28,325 nucleotides of DNA from Isosphaeraceae bacterium (GCA_039936275.1 JBDTIR010000783.1:1-28325); one strand, 5' to 3'. Counted from the stretch's first letter, positions 12,705 to 28,325 are shown. Numbers and translations are program-made. The notes: generated by a model from the letters alone, not told the origin.

Positions 12705-13815
12705 ATGCGATCCGAGCCGTCGCTCATGATGCCAGAACGGGATGCCGTCGTCTCGATCCTCTGGGGCCTTGCGGCGGCGGTCCTGCTGATGGTCGGAATT
12801 TATTTCGGCAGCCGCCGGTTCAAAGACTTCGATCCGGCCCTGGTCTCTTACGCGGGCGCGAGCGTGTTCGCGGTCTTCGGCCTTGGCTACCGCTACAGCA
12901 TGTGGCTGCGCCGGCCGCCCACGCAGCTTTACTGGTTCCGTGGCTGGCAGCTTTTCTGGTCGCCGAAGCGGCTCGCGGGCAACCTGGTTCACCTGGTCCG
13001 GCTCTTCTGGGACAATTTTGTCCGCCAGACCTTCATCGACCGTAGGTCGCACGCCCGTTGGGCTGCGCACTGGCTGATCGCCTGGGGATGCATCCTCGCG
13101 GCGGCGGTCACATTCCCCTTGTCGTTCGGTTGGGTCCGGTTCGAGACCCCCCGCGGCACCCAGGACGTCTACAACGCCTATGCGTTTGGCATTCACCTCT
13201 CGAGTTTTCGGCTCGATAGCTGGCTCGCCCCCCTTGACGTTCAACATCCTGGTCATCTCGTCGGCCATGGTGACTGCCGGGGTGGTTTTGGCGCTCTGGC
13301 GACGCGCCTTTGACGGCGGAGTGATCGCCGTGCAGCAGTTCGTCACGGATCTTTTACCCTTGATCCTGCTCTTCGCCGTGTCGGTAACAGGGGTCTTGCT
13401 CTCGGTCTCGTCCCGATGGTTGCACGGGTATCACTACGGATTTCTCTCGCAATTCCACGCCGTGACCGTGATCTTGACCCTGATTTACCTGCCGTTCGGG
13501 AAGTTCTTTCACATCTTTCAGCGACCGGCGCAGCTTGGCGTGGATTTCTACCGCCGCCAAGGCGTTGAGTCCGGCCAGGCGACCTGCGTCCGCTGCGGCC
13601 AAGGGTTCGGCTCCCGATTGCACGTCGCTGACCTCAAGGCCGTCGAGGCGAAATTGGGGATCGACTTCCGGCTTGGCGCCCAAGGTCATTACCAGGACGT
13701 CTGCCCCCCTTGTCGCCGCAAAAACCTTGGCCTGGTTCAAGATAGTCTCTGGCAACATGGGCCACGGCTCGACGCCAATGAGGAGGTCCATACCAGTGGC
13801 GCAGCAACCCGTTGA
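12705..13815 (+). pseudogene. NarI-like (cytochrome b type) polytopic membrane protein with C-terminal CxxC-x35-CxxC, split by one extra C in a C6 run (13228-13233); pseudogene or sequencing error
   Basis: Two overlapping hydrophobic ORFs (12669-13313, 13180-13815) join as ...WLAP/LTFNILV... if one C is removed, giving 369 aa. His residues in TM context ([23 protein letters not shown]) resemble NarI heme ligands. Confidence 0.75.
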
Positions 13816-16006
13816 CGCTGAGACGCTGATCGAACGGTTTGGACCTCATCCCAAGAACACGCCGCCGGGCGGCTGGTCGGCCGCTCTGGGATATGACCGC
13901 ATGGTGAAGACGCATTGCTGCTTTTGCGGCCAGCAGTGCGGCATCCAGCTCAAGGTGCGTGACAACAAGGTGGTCGGCTTCGAACCCTGGGAAGACTTTC
14001 CGTTTAATCGCGGCAAGCTCTGTCCCAAAGGGGTCAAACGGTACATGCAGGATGAGCATCCCGACCGCCTGACCAGCCCGCTTCAGCGCAAGGACGGCGT
14101 CGGCTTCGAGCCGATCTCCTGGGAAGCCGCACTGGACCGCACAGCTTCGGAAATCCGGAGGATTCAGGAGCGATACGGCCCCGACTCGTTCGCAATCCTC
14201 GGCGGCGCGTCCTTGACCAACGAGAAAGCGTACTTGATGGGCAAGTTCGCCAGGGTCGCCCTCCGCACGGCCAACATTGACTACAACGGCCGGCTGTGCA
14301 TGGTCTCGGCCGGCGCGGCCTGCAAGAAAGTCTTCGGCGTCGATCGCAACGCCAACCCTTGGAGCGATATCCCGCTTGCCGAGGCCATCCTCGTGGCCGG
14401 GGCCAACATCGCCGAGTGCGCCCCGATCACGACCGATTACCTCTGGCAGGCTCGCGAGCGTGGGGCCAAGATCATCGTCACCGACCCCCGAATGACCCCG
14501 ATCGCCAGAACGGTCGACCTGTTCATTCCGGTCAAGCCCGGCGGCGACATCGGCGTCTTCAACGGCATGCTCCATGTGATGATCGAGCGCGGCTGGATCA
14601 ACCGCGAGTTCCTCGCCAACCACACAACCGGCTGGGACGAGGTCGAGGAATCGGTACGAAAGTTCACACCCGAATACGCCTCGAAGATCGCCGGCGTGCC
14701 CGCCTCAATGATCGTCAAGGCCGCCGAAATCTGGGGGCCCGCCCGGACCAGCTTCCTGATGCACTCCCGAGGGATCGAACAGCACACCAAAGGGGTACAG
14801 AACGTCCTCGCCGCGCTCAATCTGGTGCTAGCCACCGGCCGGATCGGCCGTCCAGGCTGCGGCTACGCCATGATTACCGGCCAGGGGAACGGTCAAGGAG
14901 GGCGCGAGCAAGGCCAGAAGTGCGACCAGCTCCCCGGCTACCGAGACATCGAGAACCCCGAGCATCGCGCCTACATCGCCGAAGTCTGGGGCGTCCCCGA
15001 AGAGTCGATCCCCCACAAAGGGCTCTCCGCGGTGCCGATCCTCGAAGCCATCCATGAAGGCAAGATCAAGGGTCTGTTCTCGATCAGCTTCAACCCGATG
15101 GTCTCCTTGCCCGACCACCGTTACATCGCCGAGGCCCTCGGCAAGCTCGAATTCTTCGCCACGTGCGACTTCTTCCTGTCCGAGACCGCCTACCACGCCG
15201 ACGTCGTACTTCCCGGGTCATTGATCGAGGAGGACGACGGCACGACCACCAATACCGAAGGCCGGGTGATTCGCCATAAAAAGGTGGTTGATCCACCCCA
15301 AGGGGCTCGGGTGGACTGGCAAATCGTTTGCGAGATCGCGGCCCGCCTCGGCCACGCCGACAAGTTCCGCTACAATTCCCCTCGCGAGATTTTCGAAGAG
15401 CTGCGGGTCGCCTCCAAAGGGGGCGTATCTGACTATTCCGGCATCACCTGGGAGAAAATCGATGCGAACATGGGCGTCTTCTGGCCCTGCCCGAGCCTCG
15501 AACATCCCGGCACCCCCAGGCTCTACGAAGGGAATCGGTTCAACCACCCCGACGGCAAGGCGCACCTCCAGGTGGTTGACTGGCGGCCCTCGGCCGACGA
15601 GGTGGACGACGAGTACCCGATCATCCTGACCACCGGCAGGGTCGTGGCCCACTACCTCTCCGGCAACCAGACCAGGCGGATCGGCGGCCTCGTGGACCAG
15701 ACCCCCGAACCGTTCTGCGAAATCCACCCGAGGCTCGCCGAGCGGCTCGGCCTGGTGGAGGGCGACTTCGTAACGGTCGAGAGCCGCCGGGGTTCGATCA
15801 CGGTCCTCGCGAAAATCGTCAAGACGATTCGCCCGGACACCGTGTTCATCCCCTATCACTGGCCACTCAACCGCTCGGTGAACCACTGCACGCAACGGGC
15901 GATCGACCCGATCTCCAACATCCCTGAATTCAAGTATAGCGCCGTGCGCGTCACCAAGGCCGCGCCTTCCGATAATCCAATGGCCACAAGGGGGGCGTCG
16001 CGATGA
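13796..16006 (+). CDS. Mo-bisPGD oxidoreductase catalytic subunit, NasA/NapA nitrate-reductase-like
   Basis: N-terminal [4Fe-4S] motif [11 protein letters not shown]...GKLCPKG; Mo-ligand motif [10 protein letters not shown]; TNTEGR; [20 protein letters not shown] start at 13796 after AGGAGG; no signal peptide. The substrate is inferred. Confidence 0.88.
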
Positions 16007-16638
16007 GCGAGATGGTCTTCTACATGGACTACTCGCGGTGCATCGGCTGTCAGGCGTGCGTTCAGGCCTGCGCCGAATGCGACACGCACCGTGGACGGTC
16101 GATGATTCACCTTGAGACCATCCAGCGTCGTGAGAGCGTGCAGACCGCGCCCCAGGTCTGCATGCACTGCGAAGACCCGATCTGCGCCCGCGTTTGCCCG
16201 GCCGACGCGATCAAGCAGACCCCCGACGGCGTCACCCAAAGTTCGCTCACGCCGCGCTGCATCGGGTGCTCGAACTGCGTGCTGGCCTGCCCGTTCGGCG
16301 TGCCGAATTATTATGCCGAACTCGATCAGATGATGAAGTGCGACTATTGTTATGACCGGACGTCCGTCGGCAAGCGTCCGATGTGCGCGACGGTCTGCCC
16401 CTCAGGGGCCTTGGCGTTCATGACCCCCGAAGATTTCGCACAAACCCGGCGCGGGCACGCGATCAACGAGTGGACGTTCGGCAACGAGACGGTGCGAACC
16501 AAGGTCCGCGTGGTCGTCCCGCCTCAGGTCGAGCGAGTTCGGGTTGATCTTGTGCAGATCGGCGGGCTCGCGCCCCAAGCGGCTTCGACGGCGATCGTCG
16601 ATCCCGAAGACGTGGCCGCGATGCTTGAGGAGGTCTGA
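16003..16638 (+). CDS. Four-cluster 4Fe-4S dicluster electron-transfer subunit (DmsB/NrfC-like)
   Basis: [42 protein letters not shown]...CATVCP; ATGA overlap with the catalytic gene. Confidence 0.93.
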
Positions 16639-16643
16639 GCCAA

Positions 16644-17189
16644 ATGTCCATCGACGCCAAAAGCGAACCCGCCGCAGAACCCGTCGTCGGGCCAGAACCG
16701 GCCCGATGCCCGTTCCACCGCTGGGCTGAGGACTTCCCGATCGAGTGGGAGGCCGACCACTACGTCACCCGCCGCGAGTTGACGAAGTTCCTGACCCTGG
16801 GCTCGGGCCTACTCGTCGGAACGACCGCGGCGGTCGCCGTCGTCGGCCTGGTCGCCAAGCCCAGATCGTTTCCAGAGCGGAAGGTCGCTTCCGCGTCGGC
16901 CGTCGCCCCGGGGGGTTCATTGCTGTTCCGTTACCCGACCGACGAAGATCCGTGCATCCTGCTCAGAGATGCCGAAGGGGAGCTTCACGCATATTCCCAG
17001 GTCTGCACCCATCTCTCGTGCGCGGTGGTGCATCGACCCGATGATCAGGTCTTGTTCTGCCCATGCCATCATGGGTTCTTCTCGGATCGAGAGGGAACGG
17101 TGGTTGCCGGCCCTCCAACCCGTCGCTTGCCCAGGATCACGCTCGAGTTGCGAGGTGACGACGTTTTCGCCAAGGGTGTGGAGGTCTAA
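16644..17189 (+). CDS. Membrane-anchored Rieske [2Fe-2S] protein with a Tat-like twin-arginine motif
   Basis: CTHLSC and CPCH boxes; TRRELTKFL followed by a hydrophobic helix. Confidence 0.92.
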   Translation: MSIDAKSEPAAEPVVGPEPARCPFHRWAEDFPIEWEADHYVTRRELTKFLTLGSGLLVGTTAAVAVVGLVAKPRSFPERKVASASAVAPGGSLLFRYPTDEDPCILLRDAEGELHAYSQVCTHLSCAVVHRPDDQVLFCPCHHGFFSDREGTVVAGPPTRRLPRITLELRGDDVFAKGVEV

Positions 17190-17191
17190 CG

Positions 17192-17437
17192 ATGCGCGAT
17201 CGGCACCAAGGCACGATCCTGTTCACAGCCTTCCTCTGGCTCATCGGCATCTCGGTGGTGATCCAGTTGTGGCTGCTCGCCGCGGCGCTCGACGCGCTCT
17301 TGGCCGGTCATCGTGAGGTGCCGGTCTCAGCGGCGATCGCATCGCTGGTCTTGTTTCTCGTCAATGGCGGCTTGCTGATCTTTGTCCTGTCGTTTGACCG
17401 GCGGATTCGGCGCGCCGACGACGCCAAACGGAAGTAA
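17192..17437 (+). CDS. Small 2-TM membrane protein, DUF6755-like
   Basis: Two hydrophobic helices with VIQLWLLAAALDALLAG; 2-nt gap after the Rieske gene. Family assignment is from recall. Confidence 0.65.
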   Translation: MRDRHQGTILFTAFLWLIGISVVIQLWLLAAALDALLAGHREVPVSAAIASLVLFLVNGGLLIFVLSFDRRIRRADDAKRK

Positions 17438-17470
17438 TCCAGGCGTTTTGGCTCTCGGACCTCGACACTC

Positions 17471-18142
17471 TTGGACCTTCCCGCAGACGATTTCGAAATA
17501 AAAGCGAGGTTCCGGGTGCGGTCCGAATTCGTTCAACAAGGCAAGACGCGCTGGTTTCACCTCGCCGGGTTCGAACGTCGATTGGGCAAACGGCCAGCGC
17601 AGGCGTTCTTCGCCTTTGTCAACGGCCTGCTGTCGATCAGTCTGCTGGCCGCGCTCGCCATGTGGCGAGACCAGCCCTTGATCTTCCCATCGTTAGGGCC
17701 GACGGCGTTCTTGCTCTTCTATACCCCCTTGGCACCCGGGGCTTCGCCGCGTAACACCCTGTTTGGCCACCTGATCGCGGTCTTCTGCGGTTACGGCTCG
17801 CTGGTGCTCTTTGGTCTGACCGATGACGGCCCCGCCTTGATGACGGGCATCACCGAGGCGCGCGTGGGAGCGACCGCCCTCTCATTAGCGGCGACGGCGG
17901 GCTTGATGGTCTTGTTCTCGGTCGAGCACCCGCCAGCAGGGGCGACGACCTTGATCGTCTCGCTGGGCATCCTTCGCCACCCTCGCGAACTGGTCTCACT
18001 CATGGCGGCGGTCGTCTTGCTCTGCATCCAGGGGTGGGTCATTAACCGACTCGCCGGCATTCCGTACCCGCTCTGGCGCGCCAGGCCACCGAAGCAGGCC
18101 AATTCAGAGCCGGCTCAGCCGCCTGCCGGGTCCGTTCCTTGA
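17471..18142 (+). CDS. HPP-family membrane protein (putative nitrite transporter)
   Basis: IFPSLGPTAFLLF...ASPRNTLFGH and signature EHPPAGATTL; multiple TM helices; TTG start uncertain. Confidence 0.85.
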   Translation: MDLPADDFEIKARFRVRSEFVQQGKTRWFHLAGFERRLGKRPAQAFFAFVNGLLSISLLAALAMWRDQPLIFPSLGPTAFLLFYTPLAPGASPRNTLFGHLIAVFCGYGSLVLFGLTDDGPALMTGITEARVGATALSLAATAGLMVLFSVEHPPAGATTLIVSLGILRHPRELVSLMAAVVLLCIQGWVINRLAGIPYPLWRARPPKQANSEPAQPPAGSVP

Positions 18143-18403: not shown

Positions 18404-20071
18404 GTGAGCGACGGCCTGAAGCGCATTTTCGGGATCGACCTGGGGACGACCTATTCGGCGATCGCCTACGTCGATGAACACGGCAAGCCGGTCATCGTCC
18501 CCAACCAGGAAAGCGAGCGGATCACCCCCAGCGTGGTCCTTTTCGACGGCGACAACGTGATCGTCGGCAACACGGCCAAGGAGTCGGCGAAGGTCGAGCC
18601 CGACCGCGTCGTCGGCCGGGTCAAGCAACACATGGGCGACCCGCACTTTGTCTTCGAGCACGACGGCCAGGCGTACAGCCCGGAAGACGTCAGCTCATTC
18701 ATCCTCCGCAAGGTCGTCAGCGACGCCGAGGTCGCGCTCGGCGGCGACCCGATCACCGACGTCGTCATCACCTGCCCGGCTTACTTCGGCACCGACGAAC
18801 GCGAAGCCACCGCCAACGCCGGACGCCTGGCCGGCCTGAACGTGCGCGCCATCCTCAATGAGCCGACCGCCGCCGCGATCGCCTATGGCCTGGAACAGGC
18901 TGACGATCAGACCGTCCTGGTCTACGACCTGGGCGGCGGCACGTTTGACATTACGATGATCGAAATCAAAGACCGCTTGATTCGAGTCATTTGTACAGGC
19001 GGCGACCACCGACTCGGCGGCGCGCTCTGGGACGAGGCGATCGTCATGTACCTCGCCGACCAGTTCCGCCAGCAAACCGGCGTCGAAGCCGACCCGATGG
19101 ACGACCCCGAAGTCCTCAACGACCTGTTCCTCCAGGCCGAACGCGGCAAGAAAACCCTCACCCAGCGCGACAAGGCCCCCTTCCGCGTCACCCACGCCGG
19201 ACAGCAAGCCAGGGTCGAGCTCGACCGGATCAAGTTCGAGGAAATTACTCGACACCTGCTCGACCGCACCATTGAACTGACCCGCGACATGCTCAACGAC
19301 GCCAAGGCGAAAGGGGCCGAACGGTTCGACAAGATCATCCTCGTCGGCGGTGCGACCCGCATGCCCCAGGTCCGCGATCGGCTCGTTAATGACTTCCGTA
19401 TTGAGCCCGAAGTCTACGACCCCGATGAAGCGGTGGCCAAAGGGGCCGCGCTCTTCGGCCTCAAGGAAGCGCTTCAGGATCAGGTCCGAGAGATCATCGC
19501 GCCCAACCATCCTGAGGGCGACGCCGACCACGACGAGATTGACCTGGCGGCCATCAGTGAGGCCGAAATCAGCGAAGCGCTCGACCGGATCGAGCAGACG
19601 ACCGGGTTCACCCTCACCGGTCCTGTGCGCGAGCTGGTCAGTACCCAGATCGTCAACGTGCTCTCAAAAAGCCTCGGCGTCGTGGCGAGGAACGAAGAGG
19701 GCAAGGACGTCGTCGTTTACCTCTTGCCCCGCAACAGCGAGGTGCCGATGGAGCAAACGGCCGACTTCGGCACCGACCAACCCAACCAGGAAGGGGTCGA
19801 GATCCAGGTCATGGCCGGTGAGCGCGACAGCCCAGACCCACTCGACTGCAAGGACGTCGGCACCGCGACGCTCAACCTGCCCCCGGCCTTGCCCGCGCGA
19901 AGCCCGGTGCGCGTGACCTTCGCCATCAGTCGCGACGGCCGCCTCGACGTCTCGGCCGTGGACCTGACCGGCGGCGGCTCGATCCACGTCGAGTTCGAGA
20001 CCGAGGCCGTGATGCGCGCCGACGAGGTCGCCGAACGCTCGACGGCCCTGCGCCTCTTGAACGTGTCTTGA
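18404..20071 (+). CDS. Atypical Hsp70-family protein (555 aa, no helical lid, long linker insertion)
   Basis: [40 protein letters not shown]; SBD-beta-like C-terminus ends shortly after the last strand. Confidence 0.93.
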   Translation: MSDGLKRIFGIDLGTTYSAIAYVDEHGKPVIVPNQESERITPSVVLFDGDNVIVGNTAKESAKVEPDRVVGRVKQHMGDPHFVFEHDGQAYSPEDVSSFILRKVVSDAEVALGGDPITDVVITCPAYFGTDEREATANAGRLAGLNVRAILNEPTAAAIAYGLEQADDQTVLVYDLGGGTFDITMIEIKDRLIRVICTGGDHRLGGALWDEAIVMYLADQFRQQTGVEADPMDDPEVLNDLFLQAERGKKTLTQRDKAPFRVTHAGQQARVELDRIKFEEITRHLLDRTIELTRDMLNDAKAKGAERFDKIILVGGATRMPQVRDRLVNDFRIEPEVYDPDEAVAKGAALFGLKEALQDQVREIIAPNHPEGDADHDEIDLAAISEAEISEALDRIEQTTGFTLTGPVRELVSTQIVNVLSKSLGVVARNEEGKDVVVYLLPRNSEVPMEQTADFGTDQPNQEGVEIQVMAGERDSPDPLDCKDVGTATLNLPPALPARSPVRVTFAISRDGRLDVSAVDLTGGGSIHVEFETEAVMRADEVAERSTALRLLNVS

Positions 20072-20081
20072 GGAATCATTC

Positions 20082-20753
20082 ATGAGCACTGCAATCGGAT
20101 TCCCGGTCAAGCCGGCCGAAGGCGAGCGCCGGTTCGTGCTTCAAGGCGTCGGCTGGGACGGCTACCAGGCGCTCCTGGCCCTCGTCGCGGACCAAGGGGT
20201 CCGTCTGACCTACGACCGGGGGAAGATCGAACTCATGTCGCCACTTTGGATTCACGAGCGATACAAGAAACTTTTCGCGTATATCATTGAGGCAATCACC
20301 GATGAACTTGATCTACCCAGGGTTGCCGCCGGCGCGTCAACGTTTAACAGCCAGGCGCTAGACCGTGGACTGGAGCCCGACGAATGTTATTACCTCGCGA
20401 GCGCCGCGATGCTCCGGCAGACCGATCGGATCGATTTGGCAATCGATCCACCGCCGGACCTGGCCATTGAAATCGAAATCACTCGAAGCGCCCTTGATCG
20501 CCCGGGCATCGATGCGGCCCTGGAGGTCCCCGAAGTCTGGAGATATAACGGTGAGTCGATTCGCGTTCTGCTCCTCGGACCGGATCGAACCTACGCCCTC
20601 TCTGAGACCAGCCGGGCGTTTCCATTCTTGCCGATGGCGGAGATCGAGCGGTTCTTGCATGACCACGACCCGAACAATGATACCCGCTGGGGCCGGGCCT
20701 TCCGCGCCTGGCTCCGCAGGGAGATCGTGCCAAGAGTGAGGGGCGAACGTTGA
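20082..20753 (+). CDS. Uma2-family (DUF820) PD-(D/E)xK endonuclease-like protein, possibly degenerate
   Basis: RLTYDRGKIELMSP...LEPDECYY...PPDLAIEIE...VPEVWRY. Confidence 0.9.
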   Translation: MSTAIGFPVKPAEGERRFVLQGVGWDGYQALLALVADQGVRLTYDRGKIELMSPLWIHERYKKLFAYIIEAITDELDLPRVAAGASTFNSQALDRGLEPDECYYLASAAMLRQTDRIDLAIDPPPDLAIEIEITRSALDRPGIDAALEVPEVWRYNGESIRVLLLGPDRTYALSETSRAFPFLPMAEIERFLHDHDPNNDTRWGRAFRAWLRREIVPRVRGER

Positions 20754-20820
20754 ACCAAGGCAATCTGATTGACCTTGAGCCAGCCTCCAGAACGGGGCGA
20801 CGGCCTGAGAGGACCTGCCG

Positions 20821-23149
20821 ATGAGAATTCGCAAAGGCGTGACGCTCGCTCTCTGGCTCACGTTGGCGCTCGTGGTTGGTGGAACCCTCTTCATTCGATT
20901 AAGAGGGCGGTTACAGCTAGAAACCACCAAGAGCCGATGGTCGAGCGGCCTGGCGAACCTGCACACTCCGAACAAGAACGCTCGGCTAGCCGCGGCGCGG
21001 CAGTTGAACGCCCTGGTCCGGAAGCAGCGAAACGCCATACCCGGGTGGACCTCCTTCGATCCGACGACCCGGGCCGATTTCCAGTACATGGTCGGACTCG
21101 TCGCTGATCCCCTGGTCGACCCGACGACCCGGGAAATCCTGGCCGAGGTTGCCGCGAACCAAGAGTTCAGAGAACTGCCCGAAGAGGTGATGTTCCCCTT
21201 AACATCGGTCCTCATTGATGAGTCGGAGCCAACCCGCTTACGTTGCGCCATCGCTCGCCACGCCGTGCCCGCCGCCCAGAGAGAACCGTTTCGAGATGCG
21301 GTCCTCGCCACCTTGTCAAGCAAGGATGACGCGGTGCGCCATCTGGCGTATCTGACGCTTGCATCACTGCCAATCGATGCGGAAACCCTCGCGCCGCTCC
21401 TGAACCATGGTCTGAGCGACCCCGTTCCCTCAATCCGATTCCAGGCCGCCCAACAGGCTCAAAGTCTGGCGAACCGGGGAGACCGAACCGCCGTTGGGCT
21501 CCTGCTGCGCGCCGCGAAGGACCAGGACGAGAGCGTGCAAAAAATCGCAAGGAGCGCGATCGAACACCTCGGCCCCGTGCCGGCCGAGACCGCCCCCGAC
21601 CTGATCGCGGCCCTCGACGACGCCGGCCCCAGGCTGCGGATCGCCCTGGCGTCCGGACTACTCCAAACGACTGGGCAGGTCGATCTCTATGCTCCGATCT
21701 TGATTGACGGCCTGCGATCAAACGACCTGGAGACCTGGCAGACCGCGTCCATGACGCTCTGGAGAATCGGTCGCCACCCTGAAATGCAGTCGCGAATCCT
21801 TCAAGACTTGACCATCCATGCTGGGCAAGTCCGACGACCAGTTCCGCGACCGGGCCGGACTGACCTTGGCGATGGCGGCCGGAGACTCCGACGCTTACAA
21901 GCCCTACATCGCCAACGGGCTTCGCTCGAACGACCAGGACTTGAGGTCCTGGGCCTTGATGGCGGCGTCCATGACCCAGATGCGAACGCAGTCGGGCCCA
22001 CAAACAGGCCCGACACGTCTGATCGTGCAACGCGGCCTGGTCCTCATCGCCGTGATCTCTGCGCTCGCCATGATCGGTCTCTTCATCCAACTCGCACTCT
22101 CGGCCACGAGGACAAAGACTCGACCGTCCGCCCCCGACCCTGCTCCTGCCCCCACCCCCAAGCGGATCTTTGTCTTGAACTATCCCCGACGCATCCAGCT
22201 CCGGCCGATCGCCGAGCCGACCTGGACCGACCCGACGGCGATCGCCGAGCAGGTCGAAGCGCTCCAGGGGCTCAACTTCTCCGACGTCGGCCCGTTCGAA
22301 ATCGCCGATTTACCGGGGGTCCGACTTTGGGGACTGGTCAACCCGACCAGGGCGATCACCGCGGCCGTTCAAGATCACCCTGAATGGGGAATCTTCCTTG
22401 TCTTGAAGACCGTCTATCAGGACGGAACAACGTATCGCCAGACCAGCACTCACCGCCTCGACCGCCCCGACCAGCGACCGGGGCACGAGTTCGTTTATGT
22501 CGAAGCGACCGACATTCCTGCACGTCTTGCCCGGTTCCTCGCCGAGCGGCCCGATCGGCCGATGCGGCCGGTCGCTTTGAATGAGTTCGCAGCGGACTTC
22601 GAGCGCGACCACGCCGACACCGTTGATTGGCGGTTCGCCCGGGGGACCATGACCGATCGGGAAATCCGCGATCTGAATCAGGTGAAAGGAAACGAAGTCA
22701 CCAATGCGCAGGTCGCCGAACTTCGCCACAAACTTATCCAGAAAGGGAACAGCGAACTCGATAAGAGCCTCCGCGAACGGTTCCTTGACAGTCGCCGATT
22801 AACCGGCGAGGAGCGAGCGAAACTCGGCCCGTCCCTGGTCATCGTCCACGACGCCTTACCGGTTGTTTGGGTCTGGGAATGGTTCCCAACGCTGATCGAT
22901 GACGAATTCCACGCCGAGAACCGGGTCAAGGAGTCGGCCCTTTATGACGAATCGCTCGATGGCGAATCCGCGCCCGACCAAGCTCCATCGTGGCAAACCT
23001 TGCCGCCTCGTCTGTCCTTCGTCGCGCTCAATGAACGGTTAGGCCCGGAAGCCCGCTTCGAGAAACTCGGCGCGCTGGACTGGCCGATCGAGGCCGACGT
23101 CTACATGCCACAGGCGGAATTGGCATCGGTTGAGCACGACGTGACATGA
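20821..23149 (+). pseudogene. Membrane-anchored HEAT-repeat protein with an unknown C-terminal domain, split by a 4-bp CCAT duplication at 21812-21819
   Basis: ORF 20821- carries a TM and HEAT repeats (GLSDPVPSIRFQAA, AAKDQDESVQKIA, GLRSNDLETW). ORF 21818- continues the same repeat type (LGKSDDQFRDRA, GLRSNDQDLR), then a second TM. Removing one CCAT restores ...LTMLGKSDD. Confidence 0.7.
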
Positions 23150-23162
23150 TGGCGCGAACGAC

Positions 23163-23177
23163 GTCCGGGGGTCGGAC
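23163..23177. promoter_or_regulatory. Palindrome GTCCG-N5-CGGAC, copy 2
   Basis: GTCCG GGGGT CGGAC, 29 nt before antitoxin 1. Confidence 0.35.
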
Positions 23178-23206
23178 CGCTTCAAATTCAGGATCGGTGC
23201 GGAACA

Positions 23207-23485
23207 ATGGATACGATGAAGAACGAGGAGGCCACGGCGACGGTTCGGTTCGATGGCGAGACGCTTCATCCATTGACACCGCTCGATCTGGTCCCCGATG
23301 CAATTTACGAAATCACGATCAAGGCGCGACACAAACCGGAATCGGAAGGCACTCTCTGGGAATTGCTCGAGGAATTGGCGGGCACGGTGGACGGACCAAG
23401 CGATTGGACCACGGAGCATGACCACGACTTCCACGGCACTCCCAAACGAGAACAAGGCCCCGACGCAATCATCAAAAGGGGGTAA
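23207..23485 (+). CDS. Antitoxin-like protein 1 (AF2212/DUF104-like)
   Basis: VRFDGETLHPLTPLDL N-terminus and GPSDWTTEHDHDFHGTPK C-terminus; colinear with antitoxin 2. Confidence 0.75.
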   Translation: MDTMKNEEATATVRFDGETLHPLTPLDLVPDAIYEITIKARHKPESEGTLWELLEELAGTVDGPSDWTTEHDHDFHGTPKREQGPDAIIKRG

Positions 23486-23490
23486 TCATC

Positions 23491-23736
23491 ATGAATAAAA
23501 CGTTAACAGTCATCTTCGATGGTGAGGTCTTCCGGCCCCGGGAACCTGTGAATTTGACGCCCAACTCGCAGTGTGTCATCGTAATCCAATCCGTGGCCGC
23601 TCCGACCAAGTCGGCGAACGCCTGGGACGTCCTGGACAAGTATACCGGGTCGATTGAGGGGCCGGGCGATTGGTCCGCCGAACACGACCATTATCTGTAT
23701 GGGACCCCGAAACGGTCCTCGGAGGGGCCGGTGTGA
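23491..23736 (+). CDS. Antitoxin-like protein 2 (AF2212/DUF104-like), cognate of VapC
   Basis: VIFDGEVFRPREPVNL and GPGDWSAEHDHYLYGTPK; GTGA overlap with the toxin start. Confidence 0.82.
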   Translation: MNKTLTVIFDGEVFRPREPVNLTPNSQCVIVIQSVAAPTKSANAWDVLDKYTGSIEGPGDWSAEHDHYLYGTPKRSSEGPV

Positions 23737-24149
23737 GCGGGGGACGCTTGTTCTTGGACACCGCGTTTGTGCAAGCCTTGCTCGATCGCCGCGACCAGTA
23801 TCATGCCAGGGCGCAAGCCATACGGCCACGTCTGGATTCGGCGATCGAAATTTGGATCACGGAGGCGTTGCTGATCGAGATTGGCAACGCTCTGAGCGTC
23901 TTGAACCGCTCGGCCGCCTCGGAATTTATCGAAATGTGTTATGAAACAACGAATATATCCGTCGTCCAGGTCGATACGGCCCTGCTCATACGATCGCTTC
24001 AACTCTATCAATCACGTCTCGACAAGACCTGGGGCCTGACCGATTGTATTTCGTTCGTGATGATGCGCGAGCACGGCCTGACCGAGGCCCTGACTTCCGA
24101 TTCGCATTTTGTTCAGGCGGGATTCCGGGCCTTGATGCTGGAGGAATAG
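23733..24149 (+). CDS. vapC: VapC-type PIN-domain ribonuclease toxin
   Basis: [37 protein letters not shown] carry the acidic PIN catalytic residues; GTG start overlaps the antitoxin stop. Confidence 0.92.
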
Positions 24150-24153
24150 AGGT

Positions 24154-26214
24154 ATGTCCAGGTTCGTCGGGATTGATCTGGGAACGACCAACTCGGTCGT
24201 GGCGTCGCGCAACGCCTACGGTCGGCCCGAGGTCATCCCGAACCGGGACGGGCAGAACGTCACGCCTTCGGTCATTTATTTCGGCACCGAACCCCCCGCG
24301 ATCGGCCAGGAGGCGAAGGAATGGGCGCGGTTGGGCAACGAGGAGGTCGCCAGTTTTTTCAAGCCGCACATGGGCAGTCCGCTTTACCGGCTTCAATTCC
24401 ACGGCCGCGATTATGACGCCACCGGCCTTTCCGCGATGATCCTCGCCAGGCTCAAGGAGGACGCCGAAACCAAGCTGGGCGGGCCAGTCACACAAGCCGT
24501 CATCACTGTGCCGGCCTATTTCGCCGACGCTCAGCGCAAGGCCACCATCGACGCCGGCCGTCTGGCAGGTCTCGACGTCTTGAGGATCATCAATGAGCCG
24601 ACCGCAGCCGCGTTGGCCTACGGACTCCAGCAATCCGGCGTGACCGAGACCGTCTTGATCTACGACCTCGGCGGCGGCACGTTTGACGTCACCGTCGCCA
24701 GGATCAATCCCGACGAGGTCGCCGTGCTCGCCACGGCAGGCGATCACGACCTGGGCGGCAAGAACTGGGACGACCGGATCGCCACCTTCCTCGCCGAGAA
24801 GTTCGCCGCCGAGACCGGCATTGATCCACTTGACGACCCGATCGCGCTTCACGAGGTCCTCGTCCGAAGCGAGCAGGCGAAATGGACCCTCTCGGAACGG
24901 AGTTCAGCCCGCGTCACCTTGCAGCTTGGCACCGAGCGTCGAGGATATGAGTTGACCCGCAACGAGTTTGAAGGGATGACCTTCCCTTTGATGGACCGCA
25001 CCCGCAGACTCACCGAGGAGGCCCTTGAGGAAGCGTCCCTGTCCTGGAAGGACCTTGCCGGCGTCTTGCTGGTGGGCGGATCGACACGGATGCCGATGGT
25101 CCGTCAGTACGTCACCCAGATGGCTGGCCAACCCCCAAGGGCCGGCGTGAACGTGGATGAAGTGGTCGCCCTGGGCGCGGCGATTCAGGCGGCGATGGTG
25201 ACTGGGGAGGTGTTGGGAGACGCCCGCCCCGCGTTCACGCTCGTCGGCGCTCGGCGGATCAAGGACGTGATGTCGCACAGCCTGGGCGCCGTCGCCGTCA
25301 GCCCTGACGGCACGCGCTATGTCAATGACATCGTGATCCGACGCAACCAGGCGATCCCGGCCGAGAACACGACCACATACCTGCACGCCACCCACGGCGG
25401 GGCCAACGACCGGCTCGAAGTTTACTTGACCCAGGGGGAAAGCCCCCAGCCGCTCGATTGCTCAATCTTGGGAAAATACGTCTTCAACGGCATTCAAGCC
25501 ACTGATGCCGACGTGATGATCGACTTGTCGATGTCCTACGACGTCAACGGCGTCGTCCAGGTCCAGGCCGTTCAGCGCGACACGCTCAAGACCTTGCCGA
25601 TGACCGTCGAACCAGTGCCCGACGATCTGTCATGGCTCGGCCTGCCACCGCAATCCTCAACGACCGAAGGCCCGCGCGAGCCGATCCGGGTTTACCTCTT
25701 GATCGACGGCTCATCGAGCATGGCCGGCCCTCCGCTCGACGAGGCGCAAGCCGCCGCTCGCGCTTTTCTGGAAACCTGCGACTTCACCTCGACCGAGGTC
25801 GGCCTGATTTCCTTTTCCGACGAGGTCACGCTTCAGGCCGAGGCGACCGACAACGCCCGCCGAGTGCTGGCCGCCATCGTCAGGCTCACCGCCGACGGCA
25901 CGACCAACCTGGCCGACGCCCTCATCTTGGCCAGGGAAAAGCTGGCCGAGGCCGATCGCGCCCGTTACATTGTCTTGTTGACCGACGGCTACCCGGACGC
26001 CACCGAGGCCGCCGTCTGGGAAGCGGCGCTCTGCCGAGAGAACGGCATCCAGATCGTCGCCATCGGCATCGGCGACGCCGACCGAGACTACCTCAGACGC
26101 CTGGCAAGCACCGAAGCCGGGTCGATCTTTACCAGACAAGGCGAACTGGTCCAGACCTTCGGCCACATCGCCCGCGTCATCGCGCAAGGCGGTAAGGCGT
26201 TACGGATTCAATAA
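24154..26214 (+). CDS. Hsp70 (NBD + SBD-beta) fused to a C-terminal VWA domain
   Basis: [40 protein letters not shown], then VWA with MIDAS DGSSS, GTTN and LLTDG, and VAIGIG. Confidence 0.93.
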
Positions 26215-27120
26215 ATGAACCGTCCAGAGCGCGGAGAGGACGCTAAATTGAAACAGAAACCGATCTCAATTCGTTATCAGAACCTGAGACATGCCTATGG
26301 AATGGCGCTGTCGAGTGCGTTCGGGGCGGTCTGCGGCCTCTATTTGTATGTCGAGCTGGTGAAGGTCAATAATCTCTGGGTCAGGGACGCGGCGGCGGGG
26401 GCCTTGATCGGCGGCTCGATCGGCTTCGTGGTCAATGCGGCTGGCCCGTTTCGCGACGGCGCCTGGCTGAAGCTGGCGAGGGCCGCCACCTGGGGGACCT
26501 TGGCCGGCTCGGCTGGCGGGGCGATCGGGCTCCTGATCGGTGAAGGCGTGCTGGGCGGTTTGAAAGGGGGGACGCTCGGGCGGGCCGTCTCGTGGGCGAT
26601 CCTCGGCCTTGGGATCGGTGCCAGCCAGGGAATTGCCGACCGTTCGATGCAGCGGCTCACGTTCGGCCTGATCGGCGGAGGGCTCGGCGGGTTCCTCGGC
26701 GGGTTCCTGTTCGAGCAGTTGCGCGACCGCCTGGGGAACCGCTATGACGTCAGCCAAGGGGTCGGCATGGTGGTTCTGGGCCTGGGGCTTGGGCTCTGTC
26801 TCGCGTTGGTGGAACAGGCCTTGCGCCGGGCCTGGGTCGTCGTGCTCCAAGGGCGTCAGGAAGGCCGCGCCTACTTGCTGGCCAGGAGGGTCTCCGCCTT
26901 GGGGCTCGATGAGCGCGCCGAGGTCGGACTCTTTGGCGACCCGACCATCGCTCGACGCCACGCCGAGATTGAACAAGCAGGCCCTGGCTACGTTCTGCAC
27001 AATCACGACGCCCAAGGGCGGACTCGCGTCAACGGCGAACTCTTGACCGGCCCGCAACCCTTGCGCGACGGCGACAGGATCGAGCTCGGACAGACCTTGC
27101 TGGTCTTCCGACAGCGCTAG
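26215..27120 (+). CDS. Gly-rich multi-TM membrane protein with a C-terminal degenerate FHA domain
   Basis: About six GxxxG-rich helices, then ARRHAEI...TRVNG...LRDGDRIELG (FHA fold). TAAATG junction with the Hsp70-VWA gene. Confidence 0.85.
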   Translation: MNRPERGEDAKLKQKPISIRYQNLRHAYGMALSSAFGAVCGLYLYVELVKVNNLWVRDAAAGALIGGSIGFVVNAAGPFRDGAWLKLARAATWGTLAGSAGGAIGLLIGEGVLGGLKGGTLGRAVSWAILGLGIGASQGIADRSMQRLTFGLIGGGLGGFLGGFLFEQLRDRLGNRYDVSQGVGMVVLGLGLGLCLALVEQALRRAWVVVLQGRQEGRAYLLARRVSALGLDERAEVGLFGDPTIARRHAEIEQAGPGYVLHNHDAQGRTRVNGELLTGPQPLRDGDRIELGQTLLVFRQR

Positions 27121-27147
27121 CGCAGCCCCAAAGAGGAGTTCCCCTGG

Positions 27148-28325
27148 ATGACGGCAGCGAGGGTGGACGGCTGGTCCCTGGAAGTCGTGCGAGGCAAAGA
27201 CCTCGGGCGCGTCTATGCCTTGAACGGCGAGGCGGTCGTGCTCGGCAACGATCCAGGGCCAGGGCCCGGCATCAACCTGGCCGACCAAGAAGGGAATTCT
27301 CCCAGGCGGATGGCGGCGAACCAGGCCAGGCTCGACTGCCTCGACGGTGCCTTGGTCGTTCGCGACCTCGACAGCCCTGGCGGCACGTTTATCAACCGTC
27401 AACGCTTGCTCCCGGACCAAGCTCGCCCTTTGAGCGCCGGGGACGTCATCCAGCTTGGCGGCGTGCAACTGCGGCTCGTCGCCGCTTCGAAATCGCCCCC
27501 TATGTCCGCGCCGCCTTTGCGCCCGCCAACCGTGTCCGCATCGGGTCCGATCAACCTTCGCTTACCTTCGGGCACAACCTGCCGATCCTGGGACGACGTC
27601 CTCGCCATCTCGGCGCAGCGCTGGAATGAGCTGCGCGACGACTTGACCACGGGCCGCCTGGCGGCGTCCTTGATCGCGATCGGCCAAGGGGCCTTGGCCC
27701 CGTCTCCAGAGACGCCGGGCTCACCCGACGAACGGCTCGACGCCTGGATCGCCTCCTTACCGACGACCAGGGCGAGCACGCCTGATCTGGACCTGCACCC
27801 GGCAACCCTGACCGTCAGAGCCACGCCAGGCGGAGCAACGACCAGGCGCAAGGTCCGCGTCGCCAACGTCGGCTATCGCCTGCTCCGAGCCACCGCTCGG
27901 ATTGAGCCGGACGGAACCCCCTGGCTCACCATCGCGCCTGGATTCGCCGGCAAACCGTTCGTGACGGCCGAAGGAATCGACCTGCCGATCGACGTCACCA
28001 GCCCAGAATCCTTCACGGGACCACTCTCGGCCGCCCTGGTCGTCGAAAGCAACGGCGGCACGCGCCGGGTCAAGGTCGTGCTGGAACCCCCTGCCCCGAC
28101 CGGAGAGCCGTTCGAGACCGAGCCGCCAACGAGTCGAGAATCGGACCTCAACGCCCGCTTGGCCCGTCTCTCGGTTCCGACCCGCTTGATCACCGCGAGC
28201 CTGATCGCGGCGGGGCTCCGCCTGGTGATCGCCCTTGTCGCTGGATCGTCGGCCTTGAGCCTTACCCCGATCAGTGTGGTGCTTGCCCTGGTCGGCCTGT
28301 TGGCAGGCGCTCTCGTGGCCTGGCG
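27148..28325 (+). CDS. 3'-truncated protein: degenerate FHA, helical domain, BACON/Ig-like domain, TM helices
   Basis: Open from ATG 27148 (SD AAGAGGAG) to the window end with no stop; hand-translated, absent from the ORF track. FHA: VRDLDSPGGTFIN...LSAGDVIQLG. Ig-like: VRVANVG...PWL...VESNGGTRRV. Hydrophobic helices begin at ~28190. Confidence 0.82.
   Translation, partial: MTAARVDGWSLEVVRGKDLGRVYALNGEAVVLGNDPGPGPGINLADQEGNSPRRMAANQARLDCLDGALVVRDLDSPGGTFINRQRLLPDQARPLSAGDVIQLGGVQLRLVAASKSPPMSAPPLRPPTVSASGPINLRLPSGTTCRSWDDVLAISAQRWNELRDDLTTGRLAASLIAIGQGALAPSPETPGSPDERLDAWIASLPTTRASTPDLDLHPATLTVRATPGGATTRRKVRVANVGYRLLRATARIEPDGTPWLTIAPGFAGKPFVTAEGIDLPIDVTSPESFTGPLSAALVVESNGGTRRVKVVLEPPAPTGEPFETEPPTSRESDLNARLARLSVPTRLITASLIAAGLRLVIALVAGSSALSLTPISVVLALVGLLAGALVAW

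Follow-up and report, generated by a model that had tools for sequence, protein, structure and literature searches.

The closest described relatives of the locus analysed here are the GAP1-N2 DO-GTPase systems, one theme of which brings together HSP70 and GrpE, sometimes a second HSP70, and a fibronectin type III (FNIII) protein fused to DnaJ or TPR domains (Kaur, Burroughs, Iyer, Aravind 2020, eLife 9:e52696, PMC7159879). The conflict role of these systems is a computational prediction (Kaur et al. 2020, PMC7159879). The locus itself, an operon encoding two atypical Hsp70 proteins (the second carrying a vWA domain in fusion) together with a group of envelope proteins, lies at the end of a 28,325-bp stretch of DNA (hereafter the window) that is the whole of contig C783 (JBDTIR010000783.1) in a 78% complete metagenome-assembled genome (MAG; genome label G000) of an Isosphaeraceae bacterium (GCA_039936275.1). 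We favour the view, with a probability of about 0.5, that this operon is an Isosphaeraceae-specific derivative of the GrpE–Hsp70–Hsp70vWA ATPase module of GAP1-N2-type DO-GTPase systems that acts through the switch mechanism outlined below, its most likely predicted function being to serve, docked on a complex that spans the envelope, as a switch driven by ATP.

Four core genes of the operon begin in the window:

18404..20071, + strand: Hsp70a, a lidless Hsp70 of 555 amino acids (Pfam HSP70, E 1.9e-109)
24154..26214, + strand: Hsp70-vWA fusion of 686 amino acids (Pfam HSP70, E 4.8e-122; VWA, E 3.2e-21, residues 513-660)
26215..27120, + strand: TM-FHA, a glycine-rich protein with multiple transmembrane (TM) segments (Pfam FHA/Yop-YscD_cpl, residues 210-300)
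27148..28325, continuing on contig C611, + strand: FHA2, an FHA-helical-Ig-TM protein (Pfam FHA, residues 12-113)

A first-pass annotation made from the sequence alone had already named these four genes at these positions, together with an embedded nuclease and VapC that Pfam searches show to be equally real, and had correctly given the gaps between the last three genes as 0 and 27 nt (26214/26215 abut; 27 nt lie between 27120 and 27148). It had also held that the cluster runs off the window, as indeed it does. Over its final 127 bp the window matches the end of C611 only, and reciprocally, in an assembly in which terminal overlaps are rare (42 of 1,664 contig ends have any), and the FHA2 reading frame stays in phase on C611 for 73 codons to give a protein of 465 amino acids. 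On C611 the gene for a second vWA protein (vWA2) begins in an ATGA overlap with FHA2 and is followed by a gene for a ~300 amino acid TM protein with SH3b-like domains. This flank, which the annotation had proposed reading for a kinase, J domain or GrpE, thus continues the operon, whilst Pfam searches find no kinase, phosphatase, J-domain or GrpE among the C611 genes downstream. A secreted 713 amino acid protein encoded on C611 after a 365-nt gap is near the operon in just two more mapped loci (L062, L067) and is therefore not counted as part of the system.

To place the operon among its relatives, a species-level scan (one genome per species, with a four-sequence alignment as query) recovered 77 loci. 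Outside the family, 23 of the 77 have what we refer to as the canonical context, (DO-GTPase)-GrpE-Hsp70(~555 aa)-Hsp70vWA-~1000-aa Zn-ribbon/Fn3 protein-DO-GTPase2-GAP1-N2-(DO-GTPase), and FHA genes are found in none of those 23. The same context is seen at L058, L083 and in GCA_016648615. Its hosts include Entotheonella, many Chloroflexota (Dictyobacter, Anaerolineae, Ardenticatenales), Microcystis, Desulfobacterales and Verrucomicrobium, in addition to a Pirellulaceae MAG and Clostridia MAGs, and the seven-gene locus is nearly identical in L083 (GCA_964656675.1) and Candidatus Entotheonella sp. TSY1 (L127), with fusion branch lengths of 0.04-0.05, which makes GCA_964656675.1 probably a relative of Entotheonella. 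Actinomadura macra has only the GrpE-Hsp70-Hsp70vWA-1013-aa part, DO-GTPase and GAP1-N2 not being called there, and one canonical-type variant carries an added TIR protein. Downstream of the Hsp70 genes, an FNIII-repeat protein is encoded in 22 of the 23 canonical loci, compared with a single opposite-strand match among the 48 loci of the Isosphaeraceae type described below. These ~1000 amino acid canonical proteins (22, from L127-L157 and L056-L083) have two J-like N-terminal segments, a Zn ribbon with four Cys pairs and four Fn3-like repeats; they give weak fn3 and DnaJ matches (the latter with E 0.008), and their consensus has no conserved HPD, so that the J-like domains may be unconventional.

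Both Hsp70s of the window, Hsp70a and the fusion, are 49% identical to their counterparts in the canonical locus L083. In a tree of the two paralogues in which each half roots the other, the Isosphaeraceae sequences form one clade per half with a Shimodaira–Hasegawa-like approximate likelihood ratio test (SH-aLRT) value of 100, and both paralogues nest among canonical-context sequences; in the fusion half the clade falls within a set of such sequences supported at 97, the canonical lineages branching deeper; the tree comes from a quick search and some rows are long-branched. A single nested clade makes the FHA-type operon a derived variant of single origin; that the other Planctomycetota sampled lack it suggests that an ancestor of the family acquired it. 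Tree and gene neighbourhoods together show that the two Hsp70 paralogues are an ancient, co-inherited pair and, as far as sequence comparison can establish it, that the Fn3/GTPase/GAP1 block was replaced once, only in Isosphaeraceae, by an FHA/TM/vWA block of four envelope proteins. BLAST detects no similarity of FHA2, TM-FHA or the SH3b-like protein to the canonical Fn3 or GAP1 proteins, and hence no homology is claimed between the replaced and the replacing block.

Traces of the remaining canonical components persist in the family. Relatives that include Singulisphaera and Tautonia encode, 3-8 kb upstream of Hsp70a, a GrpE paralogue and a Zn-ribbon DO-GTPase2 (38% and 28% identical, respectively, to the L083 proteins), often with a VIT-vWA gene nearby on the opposite strand, and GrpE lies within the 10-kb flank in 9 of the 48 Isosphaeraceae-type loci. 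The earlier statement that no DnaJ, GrpE or CIRCE (controlling inverted repeat of chaperone expression) element is in view is accurate for the window, where all three are lacking; these relatives do have a dedicated GrpE and a DO-GTPase upstream. No DO-GTPase (PF19993) is found in the window or on C611. In the source genome the DO-GTPase2 orthologue (C367:8087-10178) is 60% identical to the Singulisphaera protein; the next open reading frame (ORF) is unrelated and is not GrpE, its N-terminus perhaps resembling bacterial Hen1 RNA methyltransferase. GAP1-N2 (PF20013) has no match in the 78% complete source genome and none adjacent to the operon in the 48 Isosphaeraceae-type loci; four of five relatives examined have GAP1-N2 copies megabases from the operon. 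Within the cluster proteins no J-domain was found, either as a Pfam DnaJ match or as an HPD motif by eye.

The source genome also contains, on contig C684 (L055:530-6013), a third atypical Hsp70 (662 amino acids) encoded directly after its own GrpE paralogue (279 amino acids), in a set that includes an 832 amino acid protein without a Pfam match. We considered this pair as a source of the missing GrpE and rejected it: it is a separate paralogous set, orthologous neither to the window pair nor to the Singulisphaera-type GrpE.

The first-pass annotation had described the cluster as undescribed, and had allowed that a match to a characterised system would count against it. Only the FHA/TM/vWA half of the operon is new, with no match found in the literature; the Hsp70 plus Hsp70-vWA module (with GrpE and DO-GTPase) is already known from prediction, its Hsp70 pair being orthologous to that of the GAP1-N2 theme (PMC7159879). 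A fusion of Hsp70 to vWA was not found spelled out in the text of Kaur et al. 2020 (PMC7159879), and in the full-text literature we found no description of an Hsp70/Hsp70-vWA/TM-FHA/FHA-TM/vWA combination, nor anything beyond surveys from the Aravind and Koonin laboratories.

Within the family the operon behaves as a unit. Of 60 genomes sampled, 40 have an orthologue of TM-FHA, at 58-74% identity. Strains in culture that have the operon are Singulisphaera acidiphila DSM 18658, Paludisphaera soli, Aquisphaera insulae, Tautonia and Tundrisphaera. The DUF1559/N-methyl genes of the window and its best homologues, with loci from Tundrisphaera, Singulisphaera and Tautonia, likewise assign it to Isosphaeraceae. 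The order Hsp70a, variable insert, Hsp70-vWA, TM-FHA, FHA2, vWA2 is seen in 19 of 20 fetched family loci, in about half of which the SH3b-like gene comes next, and the Isosphaeraceae-type arrangement accounts for 48 of the 77 species-level loci, all 48 labelled Isosphaeraceae or Planctomycetota. Loss is all-or-none, four family genomes (93-99% complete) that lack TM-FHA also lacking the fusion and FHA2. In one complete Isosphaeraceae genome (G350), FHA2, the fusion and TM-FHA are all kept, at 45-73% identity, despite being dispersed over contig C1 at 0.69, 1.50 and 3.46 Mb (L161, L074). That the genes are linked, are lost jointly and are kept even when dispersed argues that they work as one unit. 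In 300 other Planctomycetota genomes we found neither an orthologous TM-FHA nor the fusion of an Hsp70 substrate-binding domain (SBD) to vWA. An examination of the neighbourhoods of Hsp70-vWA homologues, as the first-pass annotation had advised, thus finds its core genes together in 48 loci, and the dedicated, co-inherited, membrane-docked Hsp70 system that it proposed is, at the level of sequence, well borne out by this wide co-occurrence.

In-frame stops, mostly TGA, interrupt the TM-FHA matches of seven family genomes (G307, G324, G325, G329, G347, G321 and G335). In genomes that are very large or of low completeness these could be either pseudogenes or sequencing errors.

Both Hsp70s depart from the DnaK model. 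Aligned to DnaK (2v7y), Hsp70a comprises a nucleotide-binding domain (NBD; residues 6-353), an acidic insert of ~52 residues and an SBD-beta subdomain (406-533), with no lid; its ATPase motifs (phosphate-binding, N-E-P-T-A-A-A and adenosine) are intact. In the fusion, NBD and SBD-beta are followed by a conserved P-x-D-L-S-W-L linker and then, in the position of the lid, by a vWA domain. The metal ion-dependent adhesion site (MIDAS) of this domain is intact (D-G-S-S-S, G-T-T-N, T-D-G), and the key residues of D-x-S-x-S and the T-D-G aspartate (D, S, S, D) are invariant across 23 diverse fusions with mutual identities of 28-69%. The architecture is widespread: at a clustering level of 50% identity, proteins of ~680-735 amino acids that match over SBD and vWA form more than 70 clusters. 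That this is not the housekeeping dnaK locus, as the earlier annotation maintained, is clear: the window Hsp70s score 365 and 405 bits in the NCBIfam DnaK equivalog test, far below the cut-off of 648, the housekeeping DnaK of the source genome is encoded on contig C503 and the window has none of the usual dnaK companions. NCBIfam has no specific family for the core genes.

The membrane partners combine recognisable folds with hydrophobic segments. TM-FHA has glycine-rich hydrophobic segments, as judged by hydropathy, followed by a C-terminal cytoplasmic FHA fold in which the phosphothreonine (pThr)-binding triad is lost: in place of the Arg, Ser and Asn of GarA the alignment has L, A and G, the leucine being invariant in 21 orthologues. 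In FHA2 the Arg of the triad is replaced by N and the Asn by G, and this holds in 16 orthologues. Both FHA folds thus appear from their sequences to be phospho-independent, and the terms 'lidless' and 'pseudo-FHA' used in the first-pass annotation were well chosen. The AlphaFold2 (AF2) model of FHA2 (m2544a4d58f54; predicted local distance difference test (pLDDT) score 84.6) contains an FHA domain (9-112), a four-helix unit (148-203) and a beta-sandwich (214-313), with TM helices beyond, about four by hydropathy; the linker that follows the FHA domain is disordered, Pro-rich and variable in length. Foldseek aligns the FHA fold with OdhI/GarA (template-modelling scores 0.83-0.88) and matches the beta-sandwich, which is ASH/PapD-like, to the ASH domains of OCRL1, HYDIN and CEP192. 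DARPin/ankyrin matches for FHA2 in the PDB were set aside as spurious, arising from short loop resemblance.

The vWA2 protein has a signal-peptide-like N-terminus, a vWA domain with an intact MIDAS (D-H-S-G-S, G-A-T, T-D-G) and a C-terminal TM anchor. For the ~300 amino acid TM protein, the AF2 model (pLDDT 75.5) finds its best match in tandem SH3b cell-wall-binding domains, in NlpC/P60 peptidases and endolysins; look-ups in the Atlas gave sub-threshold leads only, one of which agrees with this assignment. From hydropathy and folds we infer a trans-envelope layout, with vWA2 and the SH3b-like protein outside and the FHA folds and both Hsp70s inside.

TM-FHA has a life beyond this operon. Paralogues with 28-38% identity over residues ~120-301 are found in about 22 of the 300 other Planctomycetota genomes. 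At the three loci where Pfam was used on the flanks, L047 (G298:C88), L052 (G285:C2) and L040, the paralogue belongs to a conserved operon, ThiF(E1)-JAB-TM-FHA-Prok-RING_1-Prok-RING_1(-RING+trypsin); a further four (L046 and L049-L051) have a gene-size pattern like that of the ThiF-JAB-TM-FHA-Prok-RING operons, whilst L041 (G038:C18) reads JAB-vWA-TM-FHA-vWA, with vWA proteins that are vWA2-like. On sequence grounds the TM-FHA membrane module looks like a portable adaptor common to two kinds of predicted regulatory system.

Between the two Hsp70 genes lies a variable site that holds an insert of 0-4 kb in the family loci. In the window it is occupied by the following:

20082..20753, + strand: Uma2-family PD-(D/E)xK nuclease (Pfam Uma2, E 1.1e-16; PADLOC candidate PDC-S17, 6e-32)
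20821..23149, + strand: accessory protein with TM segments, HEAT repeats and a C-terminal domain of no assigned fold (Pfam HEAT_2, 4e-10)
23207..24149, + strand: toxin-antitoxin cassette (AF2212-like antitoxins at 23207-23485 and 23491-23736; PIN/VapC at about 23670-24149)

Uma2 is found at the same site in 18 of the 48 Isosphaeraceae-type loci, with 46-54% identity among the relatives' copies compared. The HEAT region reads as two overlapping ORFs (20821-22383 and 21818-23149) that differ in frame, and comparison of the frames shows HEAT-like sequence running on past the shift; they are probably one TM-HEAT-TM-C-domain gene with a frameshift near 21815, either real or an assembly error. Its C-terminal domain recurs between the Hsp70 genes in two other genomes (L062, L065). 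In the cassette, Pfam identifies the second antitoxin (23491-23736; AF2212-like, 2.2e-5) and the PIN domain (2.2e-7), and the ORF at 23207-23485 resembles the second antitoxin ORF by direct reading. Among the loci mapped, this tandem antitoxin and VapC cassette is specific to the source genome; 4 nt separate it from the start codon of the Hsp70-vWA gene. Scans of the locus for promoters and terminators gave results no better than shuffled sequence. Upstream, at 12705-18142, lies an unrelated Mo-oxidoreductase/4Fe-4S/Rieske/HPP operon, which relatives do not keep beside the Hsp70 genes.

How might such a system work? In the mechanism that we propose, the periplasmic vWA and SH3b-like parts would bind a cell wall or envelope ligand, whilst the two phospho-independent FHA folds would serve as cytoplasmic docking platforms, as the FHA folds of YscD and EssC do. 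These platforms may recruit Hsp70-vWA by engaging its MIDAS site; alternatively, the SBD may bind the Pro-rich linker of FHA2. ATP cycling by the Hsp70 pair, assisted by the dedicated GrpE and Zn-ribbon DO-GTPase that lie upstream in relatives, would then remodel or oligomerise the membrane complex, creating a thresholded switch on an envelope signal. The likely outputs would be the glycine-zipper membrane protein, by permeabilisation, and Uma2 where present, and the overall role would be in a conflict or envelope-stress response rather than general protein folding. Three features point to such a role: the operon descends from predicted conflict systems, its distribution is patchy and includes possible pseudogenes, and it has a hot spot for nuclease and toxin-antitoxin insertion.

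A number of observations weigh against this proposal. The literature contains no experiment on any DO-GTPase/Hsp70 system, which makes the label 'conflict' itself a prediction. DO-GTPase and GrpE are absent at the window locus, the DO-GTPase2 orthologue being unlinked to it, on C367, and a Singulisphaera-type GrpE orthologue was not found in the incomplete (78%) source genome. The SH3b-like fold match is borderline (E 7e-4, probability 0.99), and the membrane topology is a prediction made from hydropathy alone. The core proteins match no PADLOC-DB 2.0 model, the sole match being that of Uma2 to candidate PDC-S17, and no defence island surrounds the window, which has the Mo-oxidoreductase operon upstream and a HAD hydrolase downstream. 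Finally, both Hsp70s are single-copy and 73-83% identical across genera, which resembles housekeeping constraint more than an arms race. The conflict or stress role suggested in the first-pass annotation accordingly fares unevenly: homology to predicted conflict systems and the recurrence of Uma2 speak for it indirectly, whilst the missing defence-model match for the core proteins and the missing defence island do not.

In a bolder form of the proposal, two predicted machines of a regulatory or conflict kind would have been joined in a chimeric operon and would together form a trans-envelope alarm, powered by Hsp70, that senses cell-wall or periplasmic damage via vWA and SH3b, opens a glycine-zipper pore and, in many strains, releases Uma2. 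We regard this as rather unlikely; were it true, it would be the first case in which Hsp70 serves at the bacterial membrane as a switch for immunity or suicide.

One alternative is a housekeeping envelope machine, in which a membrane-tethered Hsp70 motor pulls, inserts or assembles envelope or cell-wall proteins in the manner of the mitochondrial and ER (endoplasmic reticulum) import motors, with vWA and SH3b as periplasmic assembly partners. Strong conservation of both Hsp70s and TM-FHA (58-83% identity across genera), vertical inheritance of a single copy as one clade, the trans-envelope topology indicated by hydropathy and the failure to match known defence models all speak for such a machine. 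The operon is, however, dispensable, since about a third of family genomes, four of them 93-99% complete, are without an orthologue; TM-FHA has stop codons in several genomes, and the operon was not found in 300 other Planctomycetota genomes. Its ancestors, moreover, sit with DO-GTPase/GAP1 genes and once with TIR, and no translocon-like channel or J-domain tether was found. We consider an envelope machine of this kind a doubtful explanation; on the translocation of clients, which the first-pass annotation had raised as one role of the Hsp70s, the evidence is neutral.

Two FHA-fold proteins and two vWA domains also bring to mind a module for Ser/Thr-phosphorylation signalling like the TerY-P triads (which, with related neighbourhoods, show the same combination) or the type VI secretion system (T6SS) Fha/PpkA/PppA, in which FHA would read pThr generated by a kinase encoded elsewhere; a kinase does lie near one distant fusion locus. 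This explanation is very improbable given that the pThr-binding residues are lost in both FHA folds, with the replacements conserved family-wide, and that kinase and PP2C genes are absent from the window, C611 and the mapped family loci. Ordinary chaperone paralogy, with two general stress Hsp70s beside unrelated membrane genes by chance, is hardly credible: planctomycetes do have several dnaK paralogues, and the source genome at least four Hsp70-family loci, but here gene order is kept in 48 loci with genes overlapping or abutting, loss is all-or-none, vWA stands in for the lid in a fusion family of ancient origin and no CIRCE or J protein is present.

Hsp70s that carry a metal-dependent adhesion domain instead of a lid make up a large family, the more than 70 clusters mentioned above. 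Of the DO-GTPase/Hsp70 systems, the Isosphaeraceae version offers a tractable entry point, with cultured hosts, few parts and membrane partners of recognisable fold, and the operon allows a direct test of how Hsp70 acts without a lid, an evident J-protein or the usual hydrophobic interdomain linker. The locus also illustrates module swapping between predicted conflict systems, an Fn3/GAP1 block having given way to an FHA/vWA block and TM-FHA being held in common with ubiquitin-like systems.

Parts of the operon find parallels in several known systems. CoCoNuT/McrBC systems also carry Hsp70-like, HEAT and vWA parts; we considered and rejected them, as McrB/McrC, HEPN and coiled-coil genes are absent. 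For TerY-P triads, PP2C and kinase matches are lacking in Pfam searches of the window genes and C611. E. coli HscC, a lid-truncated specialised Hsp70 of ~556 amino acids that works with the J proteins DjlB and DjlC, is similar in size and in its incomplete lid, and NCBIfam and Pfam give no evidence that the window Hsp70s are its orthologues. Cytoplasmic FHA folds on inner-membrane proteins are a feature of YscD in type III, EssC in type VII and TagH/Fha in type VI secretion, and Yop-YscD_cpl is the best Pfam match here, but the present operon is without secretion ATPase, ring or needle genes and the TM parts are unrelated. The MoxR AAA+/vWA pairs (RavA-ViaA, CoxD-CoxE, NorQ-NorD) and the MoxR-vWA ternary systems likewise couple an ATP-driven remodeller to a MIDAS-bearing vWA adaptor; here, however, the ATPase is an Hsp70 that is covalently fused to vWA, there is no MoxR gene and no cluster gene encodes an AAA+ domain. 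The ubiquitin-like E1(ThiF)-JAB-Prok-RING operons have the same TM-FHA architecture but no Hsp70 genes, whereas the present operon is without E1, JAB and RING.

The closest likeness is to the HSP70/GrpE theme of the GAP1-N2 systems. Shared with it are the orthologous Hsp70 pair, the GrpE and Zn-ribbon DO-GTPase2 upstream in relatives, membrane-proximal and cell-wall-binding domains, and hosts with complex lifestyles. The locus differs in that GAP1-N2, an Fn3/J-like protein and a second DO-GTPase are all missing from it, two FHA proteins, a periplasmic vWA and an SH3b-like protein taking their place. Lacking DO-GTPase, GAP1-N2 and the Fn3 protein at the locus whilst retaining the Hsp70 pair, the operon is best described as a variant of a predicted GAP1-N2-type system rather than as a member of one.

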